In this document: one piece after another, positions 1-31,173 of the stretch
Numbering within the stretch: the stretch's first letter is position 1
Layout: the number at the start of each line of letters is the position of its first letter
NCBI RefSeq assembly: GCF_054482595.1
Contig: NZ_CM137008.1
Reading direction: 5' to 3' (one strand)
Length of the DNA stretch: 64,000 nt
Position numbers and translations under genes: made by a program
The notes under the pieces: model-generated
Told to the model about the DNA's origin: nothing
The model's database searches: none
Seen by the model: only the letters and a program-made list of their open reading frames with translations

Positions 1-136
1 TTGATAGCCAGTCATCCCATTGCGACACTCGGCTAAAAAACAGGTCATTTGTCGCCTCGGTTCTGGCTTCATCGCTCGCCATCCAGTCTGCGTCAAACTT
101 ACACAGAATGGAATTGAGTCTGTTTTCGTCGGCCAT
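1..136 (-). CDS. Portal protein, N-terminal fragment (P22 gp1-like); gene runs off the window
   Basis: Minus-strand ATG at 134-136 directly after terL stop; translation [43 protein letters not shown] resembles recalled P22 portal N-terminus. Confidence 0.5.
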
Positions 137-1636
137 TTAAGTTCTCCGTGCGATGGGCCTGATTGGGGCTGGTATCTTTTTCTCTTTTGGTTTTTTGATG
201 TCGCGCATCATTTTGGCGAAGCGGCGCATCATGTATGCATAGCGAACAGCTGAGAGAACGTCGTCGTTAAGCTTGACGATTTTCCCGTTTTCATCACGGT
301 GATAGAGGCGGAACTCCTCAAAGAATGGCTCACAGGTGTTGAATACTTTGAAGCGACCGTCGAGCATCATGTCTCGCAATTCAGTGATGCCAGGCTCAAC
401 AGCATTACCGCCATCAGGCCATGTCGCATGCTCCTGCAACATCATAAATCCAGCGTCTGCATACTGCCCTTTGAGCTGCTCACCGCCGCCCTTCTCGTGC
501 TGGTTTCCGTCATGAGGCCATGCTGTTGGCACTTTATGCGCCCATGATTTAACCGCTCCCCATGCCTGAACGGCTGTTTTTTCTTTCGCCTTCCACACGC
601 GTGAAACGTAGATTGTGTCTGCGTCCTTATCCCACCAAATCTGAACCTGCGCCTGCGGGTGATCCCATCCGAAATCCATCCCGCCAATTACGTAGAAGTG
701 ATCAGGACACTCGAACGGCTGACACTTAATCGTCTCTTCCGGTATCTGGAAGATTCGACCACTACCCATCGTAGGAATACCGCGAGCACGCGCCTCTCTC
801 TCATGCTCAGGATAGGATGCGATGATTTGCTCTTTCTGCTCGTCGGTATAGTGCTCAGCGTCATAGATGGTCATGTTGACCACTTTCTGCGACTTGCTGG
901 GATTCTTCAGGAACTTGGTAACAACGTCAGACATCCCCATCAGCGGGGTAAATGTCAGAATTGAGAATTGCCCGTATTTGTTGGTACGGGTAAGACCTTC
1001 GCCATAAATGCTGTATGGTGGCTCTTCGTCAAACCACACGCCGTGGATTGTGTCACCCTGCCAGCGAGCACGGCCTTGCGAGTATGGCTTGAAGTAGCAG
1101 ATTGAAATGCCATCTTCAACGCCATCAGCCGTGTGATGCTTAACCAGAAGATGATCAACAAGGTTCGGAAAGAAAGGAGACTTCTTCCAGCTAATGATGT
1201 CTTCTTTCGGTATGGAACCGTAGCCAGGCTCATCATTCTCTTCGATACGACCGCACAGGATGCGTTGAGTCGTTTTGGTTACAGTCTCGTTTGTCTCTCC
1301 ACCAATCCAGAAGACAACAGGCTCATAGAAACGCTTACCTTTCCACTCACCGCCATATTTACCATCAGCAGGATAGCCTTTTGTGCCCGGATAACGACCG
1401 GTAAGGTGAAACGCGACTTCAGCAGCACCAGTAAATGACTTACCAAGCTGGTTACCAGCCATAAAACATCGCTCTGGATAGTCATGCCCGGCGTCGATGA
1501 ACTCACGCTGCTTGCTGTATGGCGTAAATTCATATAGCAGGTGTGTGTTCCGGTAGTTCTCTTCTTCTTCGAGTAGCTCGAGCAACTCGATTTGCTCTTC
1601 GTCGCTCAGGTTATCAAGAATCGCGTCCAGTTCCAC
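137..1636 (-). CDS. Terminase large subunit (P22 gp2-like)
   Basis: 499 aa ORF; recalled match to P22 TerL; position after terS. Confidence 0.85.
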
Positions 1637-5654: not shown

Positions 5655-6013
5655 ACGTTCTCCAGTTCGGTGATTTTTATTCCAAGCCTTCCGCCTGGTA
5701 CTTTCACACCACGAATTACGCGAATGTCATCGAATTGCTCGTCGTCTTCCGCAAATCCGGCGTGGATAAGGGAGTCGAGTAAACCCTTCAGGATGTTATC
5801 GAGGTCGCGGCGGCGGGAGTCTGGAACGTCTGCGATGACTTTGATGCGGAGTCGTGATTTGGTGAAAATGTCTAACTTGAGTTGGCGGATGATTTGCTGA
5901 ACGTCTTTTCGGTATTTCTGGCCTTTATCGCTGATGTAGTATTGGCTTCCCCGTCTTCGCCAGTAGGTGTTCACCGACGGCGGGTAAGGAAGCACAAACT
6001 GATATTCGTTCAT
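5651..6013 (-). CDS. rusA: RusA-type Holliday junction resolvase
   Basis: 120 aa; PDSRRRDLDNILK motif and overall similarity to RusA. Confidence 0.85.
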   Translation of the reverse strand: MNEYQFVLPYPPSVNTYWRRRGSQYYISDKGQKYRKDVQQIIRQLKLDIFTKSRLRIKVIADVPDSRRRDLDNILKGLLDSLIHAGFAEDDEQFDDIRVIRGVKVPGGRLGIKITELENV

Positions 6014-6300
6014 GACTTAATCTTCCCCTCCTTCAGCAGTATCGCCTGCGTCCTGATTACGCCTTCGAGGTGGTAAAGTCTGGCGTCTTTGTTGTCGAGA
6101 TTATGGGTGCGTCGGTCGATCTCCGCGTGGCAGTCACTACAAGCCCATGCGCCGATCAGGTCGTCAGGCTTCATTCCCGTTCCGCAAATTCCAGCCATCC
6201 GGTAATGTGCCAGAACTGTAGTTTCAGGGTTGCCATTGCATACGCCGTAAATACGTACCTGACATTCTCTTCCGCGCGCTTCTTTGCGTAGGTTAGCCAT
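6010..6300 (-). CDS. YbcO-like putative nuclease (DUF1364)
   Basis: 96 aa; strong similarity to recalled DLP12 YbcO (ARGRECQVRI.GVCNGNPET.VLAH...CHDEIDRRTH). Confidence 0.7.
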   Translation of the reverse strand: MANLRKEARGRECQVRIYGVCNGNPETTVLAHYRMAGICGTGMKPDDLIGAWACSDCHAEIDRRTHNLDNKDARLYHLEGVIRTQAILLKEGKIKS

Positions 6301-7022
6301 TAAGCAGCCTCCCCTGTTACTTTCAGCATTCCGTTATCGAGCAGCTTTCTGGTCAGCCACTGTTGACCACGCCCGGTGATTTTTGTGGTAAACGATATCT
6401 GTATTCCGTGATTTGTGTTGACCGCTGTTTCTTTCACTGTGAAATAGCCGCGATCCATATATTCCTGCATTGGCACATTGCGCCGGGAACCTGAAGCAAT
6501 AAGGATTTTGTGATCGCGCATCCATGCAAACAGTTTGTTTGGACCAATACCAACAACCTTTGCATAGTTTCCAATCAAAATTCCGCTGGCCTCGCCAACT
6601 CGATCGGCAAACTCAACTTTAGGTGCGGCAATTGCGAGCTGGTTTTCCAGTTGCATTTTCTGCTCAGCAAGATCAGCAGCAAGGCGCAACGCTTCCGGTA
6701 ACGTTTTGGGGATATTAACCGCAGTTTCTTCAAGCTCTCGCCAACGGTCAACAAGACGAGCGGTGAATTCCGGCGACAACTGGGCTACAACGACAATACT
6801 GTCTCGCTTTCCTTGTTCGCCTTCGAAGACGTAAGCCTCGACACTACGGCGCAGCCCTAAGTTATTGATTTTTTCGAAAACCTGCAATGCAGGAAGTTGA
6901 ATAACTCCAGATTTAGCCAGGCGCTCTATTGATATTTTTACGTTATCTGGACGACTTCCCACCAACTCAGCGATTTCAATGCTTGTCATTTTGATGGCAT
7001 TGCCATTTATTAACTCATTCAT
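6300..7022 (-). CDS. Phage antirepressor, Rha N-terminal domain with Ant-type C-terminal domain
   Basis: 240 aa; N-terminus MTSIEIAELVGSRPDNVKISIERL typical of Rha family. Confidence 0.55.
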   Translation of the reverse strand: MNELINGNAIKMTSIEIAELVGSRPDNVKISIERLAKSGVIQLPALQVFEKINNLGLRRSVEAYVFEGEQGKRDSIVVVAQLSPEFTARLVDRWRELEETAVNIPKTLPEALRLAADLAEQKMQLENQLAIAAPKVEFADRVGEASGILIGNYAKVVGIGPNKLFAWMRDHKILIASGSRRNVPMQEYMDRGYFTVKETAVNTNHGIQISFTTKITGRGQQWLTRKLLDNGMLKVTGEAA

Positions 7023-7701: not shown

Positions 7702-8547
7702 TCATGCCGCATCCTCAAAATTAAATCCAAGCTGACATGAAAATGCTTCACATGATTCAGAACACGAACCTGAATCATACTGTCGCATTGATGTCATTCT
7801 TGAGGCTAACTCATCTCTTGATATATCACTAAACAAGGCAATCAGTGATTTAAGTGTATTATTCCCTCGATACATAACCGGTTCCTTTCCTGTTTTTATT
7901 TCTGTATCAAGGATGTTGATAAATGCATCTGCAAGTTCTGGCTCATCCATGGCTGCCAGCGCAACCTTTTGCATACTTTTTTTTATACAGAAAACACAAT
8001 TACCAAGATGCTCCTGTATGCCAAGATCAAACTTCTGCCCACTCCACCAATCAAGCACATCCTGTTTTTCAAAATCGCTTATATCAGCCAGGTACCGAAA
8101 ACCATTAGCCCTTTTAAGCCTGTTTGGTTCATCTGTGCGAATGCCAAGCCATGTGATGTAATTTCCTTTCCCAAACTTTTCCTGACAATATTTGGTGAAT
8201 GGAACAGACTTCATTCTGTCGGTACAGAACGCACCGCCGATATATGGATGTCCGTATTTATTTAACATCCTTTTCCACGGTATAAGATCTGGACCAATAT
8301 CATTGACACCTATCTCTTCATAACTACTGGCCTTCCCCATTTCTGGATTAGGTATTACACGAAGGCAATGTAAGTCTATTTTCCAGTTACTGACGATATT
8401 TCGGATGAACTCATATGTTTTAGGGTGCTCTGCCCCTGTATCCATGAAAACGTAATGCACGTCTTCACCTGACTGTCGCTTTTGCTCCATTAGCCAGAGC
8501 AAATATGCTGACGTCCTGCCACCTGAGAAACTAACGACATTTACCAT
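7702..8547 (-). CDS. PAPS reductase-like / PP-loop ATP pyrophosphatase family protein (possibly NinC-equivalent)
   Basis: N-terminal [16 protein letters not shown]-loop motif; start set at Met MVNVV so it abuts the methyltransferase gene; NinC equivalence not verified. Confidence 0.5.
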
Positions 8548-9071
8548 GCAGCCCTCCTGACGCCCTGCCCGATCGCCATCAATGCCGCTTTGGATACGGT
8601 AGTAAACATCCGTCGAGGACTGATGAACGGTCGCCAAATCAGCAGCATGGAGCCTTTGCTGTTTCCCTTCTTCTCCAGCCCTGTCGATGGTTCGATAAAA
8701 TTAATCCGTCCATCAGTGATGATGCGAACTTCGTCAATACTCTCCAGAGCCTTGCTGAACCATCCGACAGACATATCCTCTGGCACAAGCATCACTACCG
8801 TCTGTCGCTGTTGTATGCACTGCTCAGCGGCTTTTTCCACCCACGGCCTGATATTGCTGTACGGTGGGTTATTCCAGATTGCACCGTGGCTTATCCACTC
8901 AGAATTTAGCGCGTCGTCGGCCTCAGTTAACCAGTGAGCGCACAGAGCATTTTTGTCGCTCGCTGCCGAATCCAGCCAGAATCCAAACTCAATATCCAGT
9001 GCATCAAAAAGCCAAAGCGGCGTTTGCCAGCAGTCCTTGTCGTGTGCTGGCGTATTTGATTTGATAGTCAT
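8541..9071 (-). CDS. Phage Dam-like DNA N6-adenine methyltransferase
   Basis: WQTPLWLFDAL...NPPYS motifs; start set at MTIKSN overlapping ninB stop. Confidence 0.6.
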   Translation of the reverse strand: MTIKSNTPAHDKDCWQTPLWLFDALDIEFGFWLDSAASDKNALCAHWLTEADDALNSEWISHGAIWNNPPYSNIRPWVEKAAEQCIQQRQTVVMLVPEDMSVGWFSKALESIDEVRIITDGRINFIEPSTGLEKKGNSKGSMLLIWRPFISPRRMFTTVSKAALMAIGQGVRRAAW

Positions 9072-12732: not shown

Positions 12733-12795
12733 ATAACTCAAGTTATAAAAATTAGCAATAACCTTTGTTATTTTACTTTGGATAACCGTAGTTAT
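12733..12795. promoter_or_regulatory. OR operator region: three ATAAC-N4-GTTAT palindromes
   Basis: Sites at 12733-12746, 12758-12771, 12782-12795, centres ~24-25 bp apart, between cro and cI. Confidence 0.5.
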
Positions 12796-12807: not shown

Positions 12808-13515
12808 ATGAAAACATTCGCAGAAAGACTAAATGCAGCCATGAGCTCAGCAGGGGTATCACAATCACAGCTTGCTGACATGGTTGGAATATCTCAGCCA
12901 GCCATACAGAAGATGTCGTCCGGTAAAACAAACGGATCTCGCAAGATGGTTGAATTAGCCAATGCTTTAAAAGTGCGTCCTGAATGGCTTAGTTCTGGTA
13001 TTGGTGAAATGAGGGATGGTGCACATGAAGAACCATCCAATGTCCGTGAGTCATCTTTAAAAGCTGTGGTATGGGAAGACATTAAAAGAAACGATGACGA
13101 GTTTGTTGCGTTGCCTCTTCTTAACGTTTCGCTTTCAGCTGGAAGCGGTAGCTGCGAGCTAGAGGAATCATCGGAGTTCTCTTTGGTTTTCAGAAAGCAC
13201 TATCTGAAAAAGATGGGAGTATCTGAAAGATCAGCCAAGCTAGTTAGGGTTGTAGGGCAAAGCATGGAACCAACGCTTCACGATGGCGATGTTGTTGGTG
13301 TTAACACGCAAGATACCACAATCAGAGATGGTAAAACCTACGCTATTTGCCAGTCTGATTTGTTACGAGTAAAAACATTAATCGCCACCCCTACATCGGT
13401 GATAATCAGATCAATAAATCGCGAAGAGTACCCGGATGAAGTAATGGATAGAGATGAATTTCATAAAACCGTAAGGATTATTGGCAGAGTATTCTGGTCG
13501 TCTCATAGTTGGTAA
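12808..13515 (+). CDS. cI: CI-like repressor (HTH plus S24/LexA-like autocleavage domain)
   Basis: N-terminal HTH, C-terminal GQSMEPT...DGD motif; start set at first ATG of the TTG-initiated ORF. Confidence 0.8.
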   Translation: MKTFAERLNAAMSSAGVSQSQLADMVGISQPAIQKMSSGKTNGSRKMVELANALKVRPEWLSSGIGEMRDGAHEEPSNVRESSLKAVVWEDIKRNDDEFVALPLLNVSLSAGSGSCELEESSEFSLVFRKHYLKKMGVSERSAKLVRVVGQSMEPTLHDGDVVGVNTQDTTIRDGKTYAICQSDLLRVKTLIATPTSVIIRSINREEYPDEVMDRDEFHKTVRIIGRVFWSSHSW

Positions 13516-13757
13516 CCGATAATCAGAAGAAGACTTACGGAAGTGCGGAGGGATAATGGAATTTCTGATAGTTTTTGTTGTTGTTTTGGTCATCATTCTT
13601 TTTGTTTTGCTAAGCATTAGCAAAAAGCTATCTCAAATGATTGAACATAGCTCTAATCGCGCAAAATAGACTGGCCCCCTGAATCTCCAGACAACCAATA
13701 TCACTTATTTAAGTGATAGTCTTAATACTAGTTTTTAGACTAGTCATTGGAGAGCAG

Positions 13758-14123
13758 ATGATTGATGTCTTAGGACCGGAGAAACGCAGACGGCGTACTA
13801 CACAGGAAAAGATCGCTATTGTTCAGCAGAGTTTTGAACCGGGAATGACAGTCTCCCTTGTTGCCCGGCAACACGGTGTGGCAGCCAGCCAGTTATTTCT
13901 CTGGCGCAAGCAATACCAGGAGGGAAGTCTTACTGCTGTGGCCGCAGGAGAACAGGTCGTTCCTGCCTCTGAACTTGCTGCCGCCATGAAGCAGATTAAA
14001 GAACTCCAGCGCCTGCTCGGCAAAAAAACGATGGAAAATGAACTCCTTAAAGAAGCCGTTGAATACGGGCGTGCAAAAAAGTGGATAGCGCACGCGCCCT
14101 TATTGCCCGGGGATGGGGAGTAA
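13758..14123 (+). CDS. insC: IS2 transposase OrfA (InsC)
   Basis: 121 aa [26 protein letters not shown]..., matches IS2 InsC. Confidence 0.9.
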
Positions 14124-14986
14124 GCTTAGTCAGCCGTTGTCTCCGGGTGTCGCGTGCGCAGTTGCACGTCATTCTCAGACGAACCGATGACTGGAAAGAT
14201 GGTCGCCGCAGCCGTCACTCAGATGATACGGATGTGCTTCTCCGTATACACCATGTTATCGGAGAGCTGCCCACATATGGTTATCGTCGGGTATGGGCGC
14301 TGCTTCGCAGACAGGCCGAACTTGATGGTATGCCTGCGATCAATGCCAAACGTATTTACCGGATCATGCGCCAGAATGCGCTGTTGCTTGAGCGAAAACC
14401 CGCTGTACCGCCATCGAAACGGGCACATACCGGCAGAGTGGCTGTGAAAGAAAGTAATCAGCGATGGTGCTCTGACGGGTTCGAGTTCCGCTGTGATAAC
14501 GGAGAAAAACTGCGAGTCACGTTCGCGCTGGACTGCTGTGACCGTGAGGCACTGCACTGGGCGGTCACTACGGGCGGCTTCAACAGTGAAACAGTACAGG
14601 ACGTCATGCTGGGAGCGGTGGAACGCCGTTTCGGCAACGAGCTTCCGGCGTCTCCAGTAGAGTGGCTGACGGATAATGGTTCATGCTACCGGGCTAATGA
14701 AACACGGCAGTTTGCCCGGATGTTGGGGCTTGAACCGAAGAACACGGCGGTGCGGAGTCCGGAGAGTAACGGCATAGCAGAGAGCTTCGTGAAAACGATA
14801 AAGCGTGACTACATCAGTGTCATGCCCAAACCAGACGGGTTAACGGCAGCAAAGAACCTTGCAGAGGCATTCGAGCATTATAACGAATGGCATCCGCATA
14901 GTGCACTGGGTTATCGCTCGCCACGGGAATATCTACGGCAGCAAGCCAGTAATGGGTTAAGTGATAACAGGTGTCTGGAAATATAG
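14081..14986 (+). CDS. insD: IS2 transposase OrfB (InsD)
   Basis: 301 aa ORF overlapping insC as in IS2. Confidence 0.9.
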
Positions 14987-15193
14987 GGGCAAATCCACAA
15001 AAGAAGAAGAGCATCTAATTGATATAAAAGAGATTCTATCTGATATAAAAATCACATTAGATGAAATAAAATACACAACAGATCTAATTGAACAGTATAA
15101 AATACCAACCCCAAACGAGAGAAAAGCAATAGATCAATATCGTATTGACTTAGAAATCGACGAAATGCTAAGCAAAAGAAAAGACTAAAAACA

Positions 15194-15220
15194 CCCGGCC
15201 TCAGCGCCGGGTTTTCTTTT
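15194..15220 (+). terminator. Rho-independent terminator after the rex-locus gene
   Basis: CCCGGC-loop-GCCGGG hairpin followed by TTTTCTTTT. Confidence 0.5.
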
Positions 15221-15385: not shown

Positions 15386-15424
15386 ATAAGTTAGGTTATT
15401 GACCACACCTATAACCTAAGTTAT
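15386..15424. promoter_or_regulatory. OL operator region: two ATAAC/G-N4-GTTAT sites flanking a putative pL -35 TTGACC
   Basis: Sites at 15386-15399 and 15411-15424, same half-sites as OR. Confidence 0.45.
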
Positions 15425-15472
15425 CTTTAAGCCATCAGCAGGACGCTGGTAGCCAAACGGAACAGATTGGCA

Positions 15473-15708: not shown

Positions 15709-16008
15709 ATGACAGTAGTCATTACATATCTGGCTGACGATAACGCCAGAAATCGCCGCAGAGCACGCAGACAGACTCAACGTGAACAGGCAATGCAAGA
15801 GCAGCGACTGGCGCGAAAAATTGCGCTAAAGCTCTCTGGTTGCGTCAGAGCAGATAAAGCAGCATCACTCGGAAGCCTTCGCTGCAAGAAGGCAGAAGAA
15901 GTCGAGCGTAAACAGAACCGTATTTACTACCGCAAGCCACGCAGTGAAATGGGTGTGACTTGTGTTGGTCGCCAGAAAATGAAATTAGGCAGCAAACCAC
16001 TTATTTGA
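15709..16008 (+). CDS. N: Antiterminator N-like
   Basis: 99 aa; arginine-rich N-terminus NARNRRRARRQ; C-terminus matches recalled lambda N (R.YY.KP....G.TC.GRQK.K..S.PLI). Confidence 0.7.
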   Translation: MTVVITYLADDNARNRRRARRQTQREQAMQEQRLARKIALKLSGCVRADKAASLGSLRCKKAEEVERKQNRIYYRKPRSEMGVTCVGRQKMKLGSKPLI

Positions 16009-16016
16009 GGTGAGAT

Positions 16017-16439
16017 GTGGAAGAACAAGCAAACAAGATTCTCGTAGAACTACTGCAAAAAGCCAGCAATGGAATAGACGCGGCTGTTTCATTTAGCCAG
16101 GCACAGATTCCTGATGTTGTTCATCAGTTGCTAATATGGAGTTTTGTCCATAGCGCACTTTTCCAAGTGACTGGGTTGTTGCTTTTAATTGCAGCAATGA
16201 AACTTCCTAGTTTTGCAAGAACGGCAAGAAATAATGGCGAGAGATGGACGTCTTTCGATGGATGTCCAAATGATGGATATTTTATATCTTCGTTTTATTA
16301 CGATATATGCACTGTATTTGCTCCTGTATTTGGCCCAATTATTGGCGTTTTAATTATTGCCTTCAATTTCGAATGGTTGAAGATTTGGCTTGCACCTAAG
16401 TTATTCCTAATTGAATATGCAGCGTCATTGGTTAAGTAA
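16017..16439 (+). CDS. Predicted multi-pass membrane protein in the early-left operon (SieB position)
   Basis: 140 aa, GTG start after SD GAGGTGAG; several hydrophobic segments; family not recognised. Confidence 0.4.
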   Translation: MEEQANKILVELLQKASNGIDAAVSFSQAQIPDVVHQLLIWSFVHSALFQVTGLLLLIAAMKLPSFARTARNNGERWTSFDGCPNDGYFISSFYYDICTVFAPVFGPIIGVLIIAFNFEWLKIWLAPKLFLIEYAASLVK

Positions 16440-16826: not shown

Positions 16827-16961
16827 GCACTGTGTATTCATTCCAACGAGTGAATACACGGAGCAATGTCGCTCGTAACTAAACAGGAGCCGACTTGTTC
16901 TGATTGTTGGAAATCTTCTTTGCCCTCCAGTGTGAGGGCAATTTTTTTTGATGGAGGATAT

Positions 16962-17930
16962 ATGAGTGAAGTAACAGATTTAGTTGTTATTGAAAAAGCA
17001 AATGCAATGACTGTATTTCAGTCTGCCGACCAGATTGAAGAAATTCTCCAAAAGGTTGAACGTGAAGTTATGTCATTTGTGCCTGATATCACAACGGCAA
17101 AGGGCAGAAAGGAGATCGCTTCTCTGGCGTATAAAGTTGCGCAGACGAAAACATATCTCGATGGTCTTGGCAAAGACCTTGTTGCTGAACTGAAGGAAAT
17201 TCCAAAGCTAATTGATGCCAACCGCAAGACAGTGCGCGATCGCCTTGATGAACTGAAAGCCAAGGCGCGCCAGCCTCTTACTGATTATGAGGAAGAACAG
17301 GCGCGGATTAAAGCCGAAGAAGAAGCTAAGGCAGCAGCTGAAGCTCTCGCAAAGCAAATTGAGTCTGACCATGAAATAGCGATTTTGATGGATCGCGAAT
17401 TTGACCGCCAAAGAGAAGAGGCAAGACTCAAAGCGGAGCAGGAAAAGCGAGAGCATGAAGAACGATTAAAAAGAGAAGCTGAAGAGAAAGCCAGAGCTGA
17501 AGCCGAAGCAAAGGCAAAAGCCGAAATTGAAGCAGCAGCAAGACGAGAAGCAGAGGCTAAGGCCGCAGCGGAACGTGCAGAGCGTGAACGCATTGAAGCC
17601 GAGCAACGAGCACAGCGCGAAGCAAAAGAGGCAGCAGAACGAGCTGAAAGAGAAAAGCATGCGGCAATTGAAGCAGAACGCCGTAAAGCACAGGAGGAGG
17701 CAGAACGAATCCGGCGCGAGGCTGAAGCAAAAGAGCAAGCCAGAATAGCAGAAGAAAAAAGAATCAAGGACGAAGAAGAGCGTAGAGCAAAGGATAAAGC
17801 TCACCGGAAAGAAGTAAATAACAAAATACTTGCTGACCTTATCAAGGTTGGCGCATCAGAAGATGTTGCTAAAAATATCATAACAGCCATCGTAAAAGGC
17901 GAAGTATTCGCAACAAAAATAACCTACTAA
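16962..17930 (+). CDS. Coiled-coil protein with long Ala/Glu/Lys/Arg-rich region
   Basis: Start set at Met after SD GGAGGA; central ~150 aa EAEAKAKAEIEAAARREAEAK-type repeats. Confidence 0.4.
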   Translation: MSEVTDLVVIEKANAMTVFQSADQIEEILQKVEREVMSFVPDITTAKGRKEIASLAYKVAQTKTYLDGLGKDLVAELKEIPKLIDANRKTVRDRLDELKAKARQPLTDYEEEQARIKAEEEAKAAAEALAKQIESDHEIAILMDREFDRQREEARLKAEQEKREHEERLKREAEEKARAEAEAKAKAEIEAAARREAEAKAAAERAERERIEAEQRAQREAKEAAERAEREKHAAIEAERRKAQEEAERIRREAEAKEQARIAEEKRIKDEEERRAKDKAHRKEVNNKILADLIKVGASEDVAKNIITAIVKGEVFATKITY

Positions 17931-23342: not shown

Positions 23343-23561
23343 ATGTACTTGACACTTCAGGAGTGGAACGCACGCCAGCGACGCCCAAGAAGCCTTGAAA
23401 CAGTTCGTCGATGGGTACGCGAGTGCAGGATATTCCCTCCTCCGGTTAAGGATGGAAGAGAGTATCTGTTCCACGAATCAGCGGTAAAGGTTGACTTAAA
23501 TCGACCAGTAACAGGTAGCCTTTTGAAGAGGATCAGAAATGGGAAGAAGGCGAAGTCATGA
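23343..23561 (+). CDS. xis: Excisionase (lambda Xis)
   Basis: 72 aa MYLTLQEWNARQRRPRSLETVRRWVRE..., matches recalled lambda Xis. Confidence 0.9.
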   Translation: MYLTLQEWNARQRRPRSLETVRRWVRECRIFPPPVKDGREYLFHESAVKVDLNRPVTGSLLKRIRNGKKAKS

Positions 23562-24609
23562 GCGCCGGGATTTACCCCCTAACCTTTATATAAGAAACAA
23601 TGGATATTACTGCTACAGGGACCCAAGGACGGGTAAAGAGTTTGGATTAGGCAGAGACAGGCGAATCGCAATCACTGAAGCCATACAGGCCAACATTGAG
23701 TTATTTTCAGGACACAAACACAAGCCTCTGACAGCGAGAATCAACAGTGATAATTCCGTTACGTTACATTCATGGCTTGATCGCTACGAAAAAATCCTGG
23801 CCAGCAGAGGAATCAAGCAGAAGACACTCATAAATTACATGAGCAAAATTAAAGCAATACGGGGGGGGCTGCCTGATGCTCCACTTGAAGACATCACCAC
23901 AAAAGAAATTGCGGCAATGCTCAATGGATACATAGACGAGGGCAAGGCGGCGTCAGCCAAGTTAATCAGATCAACACTGAGCGATGCATTCCGAGAGGCA
24001 ATAGCTGAAGGCCATATAACAACAAACCCTGTCGCTGCCACTCGCGCAGCAAAATCAGAGGTAAGGAGATCAAGACTTACGGCTGACGAATACCTGAAAA
24101 TTTATCAAGCAGCAGAATCATCACCATGTTGGCTCAGACTTGCAATGGAACTGGCTGTTGTTACCGGGCAACGAGTTGGTGATTTATGCGAAATGAAGTG
24201 GTCTGATATCGTAGATGGATATCTTTATGTCGAGCAAAGCAAAACAGGCGTAAAAATTGCCATCCCAACAACATTGCATGTTGATGCTCTCGGGATATCA
24301 ATGAAGGAAACACTCGATAAATGCAAAGAGATTCTTGGCGGAGAAACCATAATTGCATCTACTCGTCGTGAACCGCTTTCATCCGGCACAGTATCAAGGT
24401 ATTTTATGCGCGCACGAAAAGCATCAGGTCTTTCCTTCGAAGGGGATCCGCCTACCTTTCACGAGTTGCGCAGTTTGTCTGCAAGACTCTATGAGAAGCA
24501 GATAAGCGATAAGTTTGCTCAACATCTTCTCGGGCATAAGTCGGACACCATGGCATCACAGTATCGTGATGACAGAGGCAGGGAGTGGGACAAAATTGAA
24601 ATCAAATAA
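23539..24609 (+). CDS. int: Tyrosine integrase (lambda Int)
   Basis: 356 aa; matches recalled lambda Int; overlaps xis as in lambda. Confidence 0.95.
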   Translation: MGRRRSHERRDLPPNLYIRNNGYYCYRDPRTGKEFGLGRDRRIAITEAIQANIELFSGHKHKPLTARINSDNSVTLHSWLDRYEKILASRGIKQKTLINYMSKIKAIRGGLPDAPLEDITTKEIAAMLNGYIDEGKAASAKLIRSTLSDAFREAIAEGHITTNPVAATRAAKSEVRRSRLTADEYLKIYQAAESSPCWLRLAMELAVVTGQRVGDLCEMKWSDIVDGYLYVEQSKTGVKIAIPTTLHVDALGISMKETLDKCKEILGGETIIASTRREPLSSGTVSRYFMRARKASGLSFEGDPPTFHELRSLSARLYEKQISDKFAQHLLGHKSDTMASQYRDDRGREWDKIEIK

Positions 24610-24663
24610 TGATTTTATTTTGACTGATAGTGACCTGTTCGTTGCAACAAATTGATAAGCAAT

Positions 24664-24697
24664 GCTTTTTTATAATGCCAACTTAGTATAAAAAAGC
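24664..24697. promoter_or_regulatory. sib/tI-like inverted repeat overlapping the att core
   Basis: GCTTTTTTATA ... TATAAAAAAGC inverted repeat immediately downstream of int. Confidence 0.45.
24683..24697. other. attL: attL core of prophage (lambda common core, reverse complement TTAGTATAAAAAAGC) at the prophage-host junction
   Basis: 15-bp core flanked on one side by recalled lambda P' arm sequence and on the other by host sequence (AGGCTTCA = reverse complement of the attB left arm TGAAGCCT). Confidence 0.85.
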
Positions 24698-24743
24698 AGG
24701 CTTCAACGGATTCATTTTTCTATTTCATAGCCCGGAGCAACCT

Positions 24744-26027
24744 GTGAACACATTTTCAGTTTCCCGTCTGGCGCTGGCATTGGCTTTTGGCGTGACGCTG
24801 ACCGCCTGTAGCTCAACACCACCCGATCAACGTCCTTCTGATCAAACTGCGCCTGGTACCTCTTCTCGCCCGATTCTGTCGGCAAAAGAAGCGCAGAATT
24901 TCGATGCTCAACACTATTTTGCATCCCTGACACCAGGTGCTGCAGCGTGGAATCCGTCCCCGATAACCCTGCCTGCGCAACCTGACTTTGTTGTCGGCCC
25001 GGCGGGTACTCAAGGTGTAACGCATACCACGATTCAGGCGGCGGTAGATGCGGCAATTATCAAGCGCACCAACAAGCGCCAGTATATTGCCGTGATGCCT
25101 GGTGAGTATCAGGGAACGGTGTATGTCCCTGCTGCTCCAGGTGGAATTACTCTGTACGGTACAGGTGAAAAACCGATTGATGTGAAGATTGGGCTTTCCC
25201 TTGATGGGGGCATGAGCCCTGCCGACTGGCGTCACGACGTCAACCCGCGCGGCAAATATATGCCAGGTAAACCAGCGTGGTATATGTACGATAGCTGCCA
25301 GAGCAAACGCAGCGACAGTATCGGTGTTCTGTGTTCTGCGGTCTTCTGGTCACAAAACAATGGCCTGCAACTGCAAAACCTGACCATCGAAAACACGCTG
25401 GGTGATAGCGTAGATGCGGGTAACCATCCGGCGGTGGCACTGCGTACTGACGGTGACCAGGTACAGATTAACAACGTTAACATTCTCGGTCGTCAGAACA
25501 CCTTCTTTGTCACCAACAGCGGTGTGCAGAACCGTCTGGAAACGAATCGTCAGCCGCGTACGCTGGTGACCAACAGCTACATTGAAGGGGATGTGGATAT
25601 CGTTTCTGGTCGCGGCGCAGTGGTGTTCGATAACACCGAATTCCGCGTGGTGAACTCACGTACTCAGCAAGAAGCGTATGTGTTTGCACCGGCTACGCTG
25701 TCCAACATTTACTACGGTTTCCTCGCCGTAAACAGCCGTTTCAATGCTTCCGGTGATGGCGTGGCACAACTGGGCCGCTCGCTGGATGTTGATGCCAATA
25801 CCAACGGTCAGGTGGTGATCCGTGATAGCGCCATCAACGAAGGTTTTAATACGGCTAAACCGTGGGGCGATGCGGTGATCTCTAATCGTCCGTTTGCGGG
25901 TAACACCGGCAGCGTTGACGATAGCGACGAAATACAGCGCAATCTGAATGACACTAACTACAACCGCATGTGGGAATACAATAACCGCGGCGTGGGTAGC
26001 AAAGTGGTTGCAGAGGCGAAGAAGTAA
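24744..26027 (+). CDS. ybhC: Pectinesterase-family outer-membrane lipoprotein (putative acyl-CoA thioesterase) YbhC
   Basis: 427 aa with lipoprotein signal (LTACSS); recognised as E. coli YbhC. Confidence 0.85.
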   Translation: MNTFSVSRLALALAFGVTLTACSSTPPDQRPSDQTAPGTSSRPILSAKEAQNFDAQHYFASLTPGAAAWNPSPITLPAQPDFVVGPAGTQGVTHTTIQAAVDAAIIKRTNKRQYIAVMPGEYQGTVYVPAAPGGITLYGTGEKPIDVKIGLSLDGGMSPADWRHDVNPRGKYMPGKPAWYMYDSCQSKRSDSIGVLCSAVFWSQNNGLQLQNLTIENTLGDSVDAGNHPAVALRTDGDQVQINNVNILGRQNTFFVTNSGVQNRLETNRQPRTLVTNSYIEGDVDIVSGRGAVVFDNTEFRVVNSRTQQEAYVFAPATLSNIYYGFLAVNSRFNASGDGVAQLGRSLDVDANTNGQVVIRDSAINEGFNTAKPWGDAVISNRPFAGNTGSVDDSDEIQRNLNDTNYNRMWEYNNRGVGSKVVAEAKK

Positions 26028-30120: not shown

Positions 30121-31173
30121 TCAGGGAAGATAAACTTCACCGGAAAATATTTTTCTGGTCGTCCGAATAACAGATGCGCGTAACGTCGTGGCATCCTGAC
30201 CTTCATTACTTAAATGAACGTCGAGCGCACCACTGGGGTGTTCAATATTGATATTGCCATATCCTACAGAAGGGATGATTTGTCGGGTGACGGTGCCTTC
30301 CAATGCACAACTACTGGAAATAGCAATAGCACCGGTTATCGCCAACGCGCGATGGCAAGAATGCGGCATAAAATAACGCACATTAATTGCCCCGCCTTTC
30401 TGCGCTGGAGAAATAAGCACAGGTTTAGGGATAACCATATTACTGACATCACCTAAGCCCATTGCTTTACCCGCTTGTAGACGGATAGATTCAATGCGGG
30501 CTAATAATGCTTTGTCGGCATCCAGTTCCGCCGGTAATTCATAGCCTGTTTTTCCCAGATATTCAGCCGGAATAATGACGACTGGCATCGCCATATCGAT
30601 ACAGGTCACCGGGACATCGTCAAAATAATCAATCTGATTATCAGTCGGGAAAACTTTTCCGGTTTTGGTTCCAGCGGCATTCAGGAAAGTGAGCGCAACC
30701 GGTGCGGCAGTACCCGGTACGCCGTCAATTCTGGCACTACCCTCGTACTCGACAACACCATTTGGCGTTTGCACATCAGCTTCGATGAACGTACCCGTAT
30801 TGACGTTGCGGATACGTACGCGGGTAACTGGCGAAGTCGCTGCAATCAAACCATTTTCAATGGCGAATGCCCCAACGCCAGACAGCATATTGCCGCAGTT
30901 AGGCGTGGTATCGACACGTTGCTCATGGACGATAACTTGAGCAAACAGATAATCAACATCAGCACGCGGATCGCTGGAACGGCTTATAATGGCGACTTTA
31001 CTGGTCAGTGGATTACCGCCGCCAATACCGTCAATTTCCAGATCGTTACCGGAACCCATAATTGCCATCAATATTTTATCGCGCTGCGTTTGATCTTCGG
31101 GTAAATGTTCCGCTAACAGGAACGCGCCCCTCGAGGTTCCACCTCGCATCATCACGCAGGGTATTTTTTTCAT
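30121..31173 (-). CDS. ybhH: PrpF-family isomerase YbhH
   Basis: 350 aa, PrpF/AcnD-accessory-like fold family. Confidence 0.8.
   Translation of the reverse strand: MKKIPCVMMRGGTSRGAFLLAEHLPEDQTQRDKILMAIMGSGNDLEIDGIGGGNPLTSKVAIISRSSDPRADVDYLFAQVIVHEQRVDTTPNCGNMLSGVGAFAIENGLIAATSPVTRVRIRNVNTGTFIEADVQTPNGVVEYEGSARIDGVPGTAAPVALTFLNAAGTKTGKVFPTDNQIDYFDDVPVTCIDMAMPVVIIPAEYLGKTGYELPAELDADKALLARIESIRLQAGKAMGLGDVSNMVIPKPVLISPAQKGGAINVRYFMPHSCHRALAITGAIAISSSCALEGTVTRQIIPSVGYGNINIEHPSGALDVHLSNEGQDATTLRASVIRTTRKIFSGEVYLP

Follow-up and report, generated by a model that had tools for sequence, protein, structure and literature searches.

A small membrane-protein gene split by IS2 between cI and N of a lambdoid prophage: a conserved, uncharacterised family and candidate phage-exclusion gene

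The region between the repressor gene cI and the antiterminator gene N of lambdoid prophages is a hotspot for accessory genes, and rexAB and bstA, both anti-phage, have been placed there (Owen et al. 2021, PMC8585504). The rex system of phage lambda consists of two genes, with rexA encoding a sensor and rexB a multi-pass, channel-like membrane protein (PMC8585504 and general knowledge). The bstA gene of the Salmonella prophage BTP1 is a single gene located 3′ of the repressor gene, has its own terminator and occurs beside diverse repressors (PMC8585504). By description, its product is a large, soluble protein that goes to phage replication sites, and the system includes a self-immunity element, aba. 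Here we analyse the corresponding region in a stretch of 64,000 nucleotides (nt) of contig NZ_CM137008.1 (RefSeq assembly GCF_054482595.1), hereafter the window. Between cI and N of a lambdoid prophage, the window carries one small gene that is split by a complete copy of the insertion sequence (IS) IS2. Removal of the insertion in silico restores a reading frame for a 98-residue protein of a narrow, well-conserved and uncharacterised family, known to databases only as PHROG 18389. From its sequence and setting, this family is a reasonable candidate for a new small defence or exclusion gene, and as such a modest lead.

The locus shares with lambda rexA/rexB the slot, the strand, the position 3′ of cI and 5′ of a terminator and oL/pL, a membrane component and, presumably, co-transcription with the repressor in the lysogen. 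It does not answer to the description of RexAB, however, as it consists of a single 98-residue open reading frame (ORF) with one apolar membrane helix. With bstA it has in common the single gene 3′ of the repressor gene, the terminator of its own and the association with diverse repressors, whereas its product, at 98 amino acids (aa), is small and membrane-anchored. The likeness to HK97 gp15, T4 Imm, Sie2009 and P22 SieA is limited to that of a small, moron-like phage or prophage membrane protein, presumably made in the lysogen: the conserved domain is predicted here to be cytoplasmic and not periplasmic. Genes of the Sie2009 type sit in the lysogeny module beside the repressor. No homology to a characterised superinfection-exclusion protein was detected by PHROG or Pfam search or by fold search of PDB, BFVD and AFDB50. 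Type I toxins, finally, are proteins of about 20-60 aa that consist essentially of a membrane helix and are controlled by a cis-antisense RNA, unlike the 98-aa protein of the window with its conserved soluble domain of 55 residues.

The split gene begins 40 nt after cI on the same strand. Its ORF, opened by an ATG at 13556, runs for 37 codons and is closed by a TAG (13667-13669) that the outermost three bases of IS2 supply; beyond the right-hand copy of a 5-bp target-site duplication this frame continues from 15003 and ends with a TAA at 15186-15188. In silico removal of 13667..15002 yields an in-frame ORF of 98 codons. The junctions read ...AATCGCG CAAAA / TAGACTGGCCCCCTGAATCTCC ... GGGGCAAATCCA / CAAAA GAAGAAGAG..., with slashes at the ends of the element. 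When IS-free loci were compared with the window by BLAST, the match broke at 13666 and resumed at 14998 with an overlap of exactly the 5-bp repeat, and the IS-free alleles hold one CAAAA at the insertion site, i.e. an empty site. A preliminary description of the window had proposed a complete 1331-bp IS2 between CAAAA repeats, an AT-rich gene interrupted by a stop codon from the IS terminus and continued in frame behind it, and a hairpin terminator after the gene. All of this was borne out, by a gap-free alignment with the IS2A copy of E. coli K-12, the BLAST breakpoints, the in-frame restoration, a GC content of 30% and a hairpin of 7 pairs with a T-run; only the length of the reconstructed protein, then put at about 99 aa, had to be corrected to 98. 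The same description considered the gene to be inactivated, and it is indeed null in the window: the conserved domain cannot be made, and the only product still possible from the cI transcript is a stub of 37 residues, comprising the membrane helix and 16 further residues. A 75-aa ORF arises at the right-hand IS2 junction. Being the last gene before the terminator, the small gene leaves no downstream prophage gene to be hit by polarity. The insertion has doubled the spacing between oR and oL, from about 1.3 kb to about 2.6 kb. In lambda, looping between oL and oR works at about 2.4 kb, and by analogy little effect of the wider spacing on repression is to be expected.

The restored protein matches PHROG 18389, of unknown function, from end to end (E 5.2e-62, residues 1-98 on positions 1-98 of the 98-position profile), and the distant relatives tested (10/10) belong to the same family; such a match names the family and gives no function. 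A word-indexed search of 5.8 billion proteins returned 11 clusters, from E. coli and Citrobacter, and when 1.84 billion cluster representatives were searched exhaustively with a profile, 14 clusters, defined at 50% identity, were returned at E<=1e-3. Across these 14 clusters the ORF length is kept at 94-126 aa. An alignment of 17 members displays a common layout, with an N-terminal hydrophobic segment, a linker of variable length and the C-terminal motif I-K-Y-T-T-D-x-I-E-x-Y-K-L-P-x3-E-R-x2-I-D-Q-x-R-I-D-x-E-I-D. Residues Y69, P72, D81 and E88 are invariant in this alignment, the motif is still present down to about 30% identity, and alleles of 73-99% identity agree in 39 columns of their alignment without exception. 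Relative to Citrobacter-type alleles, the ratio of non-synonymous (dN) to synonymous (dS) divergence is 0.15-0.17. It drops to about 0.05 in the C-terminal domain (codons 44-98, dN about 0.06 and dS about 1.0), while the linker codons 27-43 are far freer (dN about 0.49). The dN/dS pattern, the conserved length and motif, the strong Shine-Dalgarno sequence and the full-length PHROG match thus identify the small ORF, as judged by sequence comparison, as a genuine protein-coding gene under purifying selection.

Beyond PHROG 18389, database searches gave little. Pfam, queried with the single sequence and with all 17 members, and NCBIfam contained no significant family match. A sequence-profile search of PDB likewise gave no significant match, returning only composition-driven or insignificant ones such as designed coiled coils; insignificant matches elsewhere were to MotB/ZorB membrane segments and to domains of unknown function (DUFs) at E>0.01. 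In PADLOC (PADLOC-DB v2) the only match was to ZorB3, over the membrane segment and insignificant at E 0.009, with no match to a BstA-like or other catalogued defence protein, the presence of Rex models in PADLOC not having been confirmed. PHROGs other than 18389 all matched at E 0.036 or above, the best functionally annotated one being a GP16.7-like replication-protein family (E 0.1). A literature search yielded nothing specific on the protein accession or on a small membrane protein adjacent to cI. The protein had not been recognised in the preliminary description, which is right in that no characterised homologue was found, and incomplete in that the family was already in databases under its PHROG number. 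A local feature of the nucleotide sequence may be recorded here. In the comparison of 13556-13633 with positions 6001-6078 of a Citrobacter-type locus (L003), the membrane-helix codons have a dS of 0.40, about a third of that of the rest of the gene (1.1-1.4), over 26 codons only. This could be due to one of three causes: a constraint on codons or composition, a recombination boundary, or an embedded nucleotide element, as with aba in bstA.

All family members (17/17) have exactly one strongly hydrophobic 19-mer, located at the N-terminus. Lysine and arginine do not occur on the N-terminal side of this segment in any of them (0/17), and each has one to four such residues just after it. By the positive-inside rule, this distribution predicts a bitopic inner-membrane protein with N-out/C-in orientation, its conserved domain facing the cytoplasm. 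The membrane helix of the window protein, FLIVFVVVLVIILFVLLSI, has no polar residue, and the segment is hydrophobic throughout the family; it looks like an anchor and not like a pore lining. Pore or holin-like action was discarded as a leading model on these grounds. An AlphaFold2 model features three helices (2-38, 45-68 and 74-96), with a mean local confidence score (pLDDT) of 82 and a template-modelling score (pTM) of 0.29, which fits an elongated, non-globular protein. The single hydrophobic segment and the modelled helices agree with the single-pass protein with a charged helical tail first proposed. Foldseek searches with the model gave zero matches in each of PDB, BFVD and AFDB50, a weak negative given that an elongated three-helix model is a poor query.

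The position of the gene is conserved, and its neighbours are exchanged. In a set of 46 loci from NCBI, Logan, ENA and IMG/VR, many of them near-identical E. coli copies, an ORF for an S24 cI-type repressor, detected by a repressor profile, ends 1-40 nt upstream on the same strand in all but one (45/46). Six of these repressors were compared: they share 18-64% identity with one another and 18-38% with cI of the window, whereas the small proteins of the same loci are 35-77% identical to that of the window; N proteins of unrelated loci share 13-41% identity. Co-evolution with cI was rejected on this basis. Such diverse repressors and N proteins beside a conserved small protein mean that the gene has been reassorted among many immunity types, yet kept in the repressor operon. 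The reverse situation is also evident. In E. coli 98192, with cI DNA 99% identical to that of the window, the slot (L053 3309-4382) holds a gene for an SDH family Clp fold serine proteinase and a 56-aa ORF. In strain F8704-2 (O39:NM; cI DNA 94.5% identical) it holds a gene for a DUF3024 protein, which matches the PADLOC candidate PDC-S43 (E 6e-41), and a 177-aa ORF (L054 3246-4310). In strain RM11626-C1 (O145; cI 79% identical) there is nothing on that strand, and only a 69-aa ORF on the opposite one (L055 3209-3915). Since other cargo is found beside near-identical cI genes, the small gene behaves like interchangeable accessory cargo of the cI-N hotspot. It also has several traits of a moron: it is replaced in close relatives, has its own terminator and, with a GC content of 30%, deviates from cI (43%), N (49%) and the part of the window taken up by the prophage (47%). 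The rex-equivalent position between cI and pL/N, and the view that this slot commonly holds exclusion or abortive-infection genes, had both been put forward in the preliminary description; the former is corroborated by the PHROG assignments on either side (4 and 6201 upstream, 271 downstream), the operators and the pL-like promoter, and the latter agrees with PMC8585504 and with the varied cargo found here, PDC-S43 included.

The arrangement of the region (oR - cI - small gene - terminator - oL/pL - N) suggests that in a lysogen the small gene would be expressed together with the repressor. No terminator-like site was found between cI and the small gene. The only promoter-like matches nearby are two weak ones, one per strand (9 of 12 positions), at 13477-13509 inside cI, a count no higher than in shuffled sequence.

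Intact alleles of the gene, which the preliminary description had proposed to look for, do exist. The restored stretch of 565 nt, made up of the end of cI, the restored gene and the terminator, is identical at 565/565 positions in E. coli strains E7476 and MS20674. Among 5,426 complete E. coli genomes, 98 match it over at least 80% of its length. With the 297-nt gene as query, a full-length copy of at least 95% identity was found in each of these 98 carrier genomes, identity being 98.0-100% in the 60 that were listed. The copies are annotated as hypothetical protein (e.g. WP_033558356.1), and the exact 98-aa protein is present on 739 contigs. Many of the carriers are Shiga toxin-producing E. 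coli (STEC) of serotypes O26:H11 and O111:H8, and the gene is uninterrupted in the Stx1a-converting phage Stx1a_10051. The cI-side IS2 junction of the window, in turn, was absent from all 5,426 complete E. coli genomes, and the 75-aa ORF of the right junction has been recorded once, on a contig of 5.10 Mb (WP_458928476.1). The perfect duplication, the identical flanks and the absence of the junction elsewhere show that the insertion is rare and recent.

Partial versions of the protein are encoded in draft assemblies. Several (P0012-P0014, P0019 and P0024) begin at codon 23 (…GCAAAAAGCTATC; at least 32 contigs) or at codons 36-38, and dozens of contigs, those of three loci (L050, L051 and L052) among them, have their position 1 inside the small gene. 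Recurrent disruption by IS elements was considered and is not favoured, as the gene is intact in all 98 complete genomes; P0014 (AKEEEH...), moreover, starts in native sequence, which the right-hand CAAAA/IS2 junction cannot yield. We suspect that these breaks reflect a drop-out of coverage or assembly in the T-rich 5′ half of the gene, of 30% GC. On an ENA metagenome scaffold of 842 bp (L049, 101-424), the C-terminal domain from K37/E38 onwards is fused to an unrelated N-terminus of 45 residues that has its own Shine-Dalgarno sequence (AAGGAGG), with the junction at the same CAAAAG as the IS2 site of the window. The fusion is due either to chimeric assembly or to a domain-swapping recombination that left out the membrane anchor.

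What might such a protein do? The reading that we favour, and consider quite possible though a little short of probable, is that it is a membrane-tethered anti-phage factor, expressed in the lysogen and acting on the cytoplasmic side of the inner membrane by means of its hairpin. The fully apolar N-terminal helix would anchor it in the inner membrane (N-out/C-in), and the acidic helix-turn-helix hairpin of roughly 55 residues (IKYTTDxIExYKLP...ERxxIDQxRIDxEID) would lie at the cytoplasmic membrane face. There it would bind a conserved host or phage partner and protect the lysogen against heterotypic phages, either by excluding them as their DNA enters or shortly afterwards, or as a trigger of abortive infection localised at the membrane. 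The small protein probably forms no channel itself, because its membrane helix is without polar residues. The lambdoid prophages that carry PHROG 18389 in E. coli, Citrobacter and relatives, Stx1a phages of O26/O111 among them, have at least six different repressors. A bolder claim, which we consider doubtful, would be that it constitutes a new single-gene anti-phage family, in which a membrane-tethered cytoplasmic hairpin, expressed from the repressor operon, excludes or aborts heterotypic phages by capturing a conserved partner at the inner membrane face, a mode unlike both the channel of RexAB and the periplasm-facing injection blockers.

Several points weigh against an anti-phage role. No known defence family was matched in PADLOC, and the fold searches of PDB, BFVD and AFDB50 yielded no relatives; a cytoplasmic, non-enzymatic tail of 75 residues is unlike the classical periplasm-facing injection blockers; and the three most distant members, at 31% identity or less, do not lie beside a repressor. 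The hotspot position is guilt by association, as such slots also hold virulence and fitness genes. Lysogens with the IS2-null allele persist, so that the gene is dispensable for lysogeny, which is compatible with defence and no proof of it. An alternative is a lysogenic-conversion factor, whose membrane-tethered tail would act on a process of the host inner membrane (such as envelope stress, division, transport, or the protease FtsH/HflKC) and thereby alter the fitness or virulence of the lysogen. As the last gene of the cI operon it would be expressed by the same logic, many of its carriers are STEC O26:H11 and O111:H8, and the conservation of the C-terminal domain amid varying phage neighbours means that the partner could be a host protein. 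An N-out anchor with cytoplasmic coiled helices also resembles the host proteins PspB, YhcB and ZipA. Nevertheless, no homology to PspB or to any Pfam or NCBIfam family was found, the slot is elsewhere occupied by a PADLOC defence candidate, and the characterised occupants rexAB and bstA are anti-phage (PMC8585504), and we regard a conversion factor as somewhat unlikely.

The strict adjacency to the repressor gene (45/46 loci, down to about 35% identity), together with a lambda-type CII in every locus with a called upstream region, would fit a factor by which the prophage regulates its own lysogeny or induction, for example by tethering or titrating CII or CIII, or by acting on RecA-stimulated cleavage, at the membrane. 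The need for pRM-driven expression explains the adjacency equally well, however, and the domain does not co-vary with cI, cro and N: at loci where the small protein has 35-77% identity, these three have 13-40%. The gene is missing, or other cargo takes its place, in prophages with near-identical cI, the IS2-null prophage is still resident, and a role of this kind seems unlikely. A membrane toxin or an addiction module, of a kind similar to type I toxins or holins, would account for a small, AT-rich gene with a very hydrophobic N-terminus; its cost would make the IS2 insertion an escape event, and the many draft contigs that start inside the gene could be cited in the same sense. The gene is intact, however, in 98/98 complete carrier genomes, and its product is a 98-aa protein whose conserved soluble domain is under strong purifying selection, unlike type I toxins of 20-50 aa, and which has no polar or charged residue in the membrane helix to line a pore. 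No conserved antitoxin gene or antisense ORF was found, no search for antisense RNA having been made, and altogether we think a toxin very unlikely. That the ORF might be no gene at all and have arisen by chance in the AT-rich cI-oL spacer could be argued from its shortness, base composition and annotation as hypothetical only. The probability of this is negligible: a dN/dS of 0.15 at a dS of about 1 in the C-terminal half, length and motif kept across 14 clusters, the strong Shine-Dalgarno sequence and the full-length PHROG family effectively refute it.

The value of the insertion lies in the gene that it marks, a member of a compact family without functional annotation. Of the places where lambdoid prophages keep defence genes, the gene occupies the best-known one, and it is present in about 2% of complete E. 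coli genomes, many STEC O26/O111 among them, and in at least one Stx1a phage. If it does act in exclusion or abortive infection, it would be a very small and easily cloned defence gene of unusual predicted topology, and could help to explain differences in phage susceptibility among STEC lineages. The strain of the window and an IS-free relative such as E7476, with identical flanks, form a natural null/wild-type pair.

Coordinates of the features of the window, and of the loci of distant family members, are compiled in Table 1.

Table 1. Features of the cI-N region in the window, and loci of distant members of the family (positions in their own sequences).
Feature	Position	Strand	Evidence
oR, three ATAAC-N4-GTTAT operator-like palindromes between cro and cI	12733..12795	.	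motif scan
cI-type repressor, helix-turn-helix + S24 peptidase, first gene of lysogenic operon	12808..13515	+	PHROG 4 + PHROG 6201 'CI-like repressor'
Shine-Dalgarno GGAGGG, few nt 5′ of small-gene ATG	13547..13552	+	read from sequence
Split gene, 5′ part, codons 1-37: hydrophobic segment (residues 3-21) + start of linker	13556..13666	+	translation ends at IS2-supplied TAG
Target-site duplication CAAAA, left copy	13662..13666	.	sequence; BLAST of IS-free loci
IS2	13667..14997	+	length, termini, target duplication, two ORFs
IS2 orfA (InsC/TnpA), 121 aa	13758..14123	+	NCBIfam NF006928 'IS2 repressor TnpA', 121/121 positions, 276 bits, cut-off 229
IS2 orfB (InsD/TnpB), 301 aa, -1 frame relative to orfA	14081..14986	+	NCBIfam NF006918 'IS2 transposase TnpB', 301/301 positions, 710 bits, cut-off 597
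Target-site duplication CAAAA, right copy, followed by GAAGAA	14998..15002	.	sequence; BLAST of IS-free loci
Split gene, 3′ part, codons 38-98 + stop: conserved helical domain	15003..15188	+	sequence
Terminator hairpin of cI operon (tIMM-equivalent), T-runs on both strands	15193..15212	.	7 pairs, 6 G-C
oL/pL, two operator copies overlapping promoter-like TTGACC-17-TATCTT toward N	15386..15427	+	motif + promoter scan
N-like antiterminator gene	15709..16008	+	PHROG 271, E 1.6e-36
Loci of distant members	L012 1-1756; L048 644-1570; L047 2603-4351		<=31% identity

In length, termini, 5-bp duplication and two overlapping ORFs, the inserted element is IS2, of the IS3 family, with its transposase genes oriented like cI. 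Its termini (TAGACTGGCCCC... on the left, ...GGGGCAAATCCA on the right) are identical to those of the annotated K-12 IS2A, which is also bordered by a 5-bp repeat (ATTAC), and the gap-free alignment of the two (1..1331) gives 95.6% identity. Several plasmids of E. coli and Klebsiella carry copies that match the element at 100% identity. The element is a less common sequence variant, found at 99% identity or more in only 85 of the best 5000 plasmid records. An A6G slippery site, GCAAAAAAG, is present at about 14074-14080, within the orfA/orfB overlap, and from this motif and the overlap joining of orfA and orfB by -1 frameshifting is predicted. The window carries a single copy of IS2, and as an event the insertion is routine.

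The immunity region is otherwise of lambdoid type. The ATAAC-N4-GTTAT motif has 6 matches in the window compared to 1.4 expected, three of them at oR, two at oL and one at 30326; the oL pair of palindromes spans 15386-15424. In E7476 the counterpart of cI (235 aa) bears the annotation XRE family regulator. Genes for cro-like, CII-like, O-like and DnaB-like proteins are divergent from cI. The prophage extends past the left end of the window (terminase at 137-2102, lysis genes and Ant) and, on the other side, to an integrase gene at 23539-24609. This integrase (PHROG 7244/1) adjoins a chromosomal gene for a ybhC-type acyl-CoA thioester hydrolase (733 bits), followed by that of a ybhJ-type hydratase (region 23539-26027). 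The integration point on the ybhC side is one that we take to be the lambda attachment region, where the prophage thus appears to sit.

The three distant family members have surroundings of their own. One follows a gene for a 430-aa ATPase-like protein (PHROG 7998), one follows that of a SHOCT-domain protein, and the third is found 31 nt downstream of an ORF of 154 aa that has no annotation and is itself preceded by an acetyltransferase gene. Such settings may be further contexts of the defence-island kind. At two Citrobacter-type loci, an ORF of 68-74 aa lies on the opposite strand between the small gene and N (L003 6324-6530 and L005 6324-6548, both on the minus strand), and has no counterpart in the window.

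Other genes of the prophage may be noted. Directly after N, at 16017-16439 (+), lies a gene for a protein of 140 aa that contains hydrophobic segments. It belongs to PHROG 3054, of unknown function, had no match in PADLOC, and is a second uncharacterised membrane protein, this one in the early-left operon. At 16866-17930 (+) is encoded a protein of 354 aa with a long, highly charged centre rich in A/E/K/R, annotated in E7476 as 'cell envelope biogenesis protein TolA' and matching two PHROGs without known function, 1376 and 21365. In its late-regulatory/nin part the prophage has genes for an Ant-type anti-repressor (6300-7022, minus strand; PHROG 63) and a PAPS-reductase-like protein (7702-8637, minus strand; PHROG 33262).

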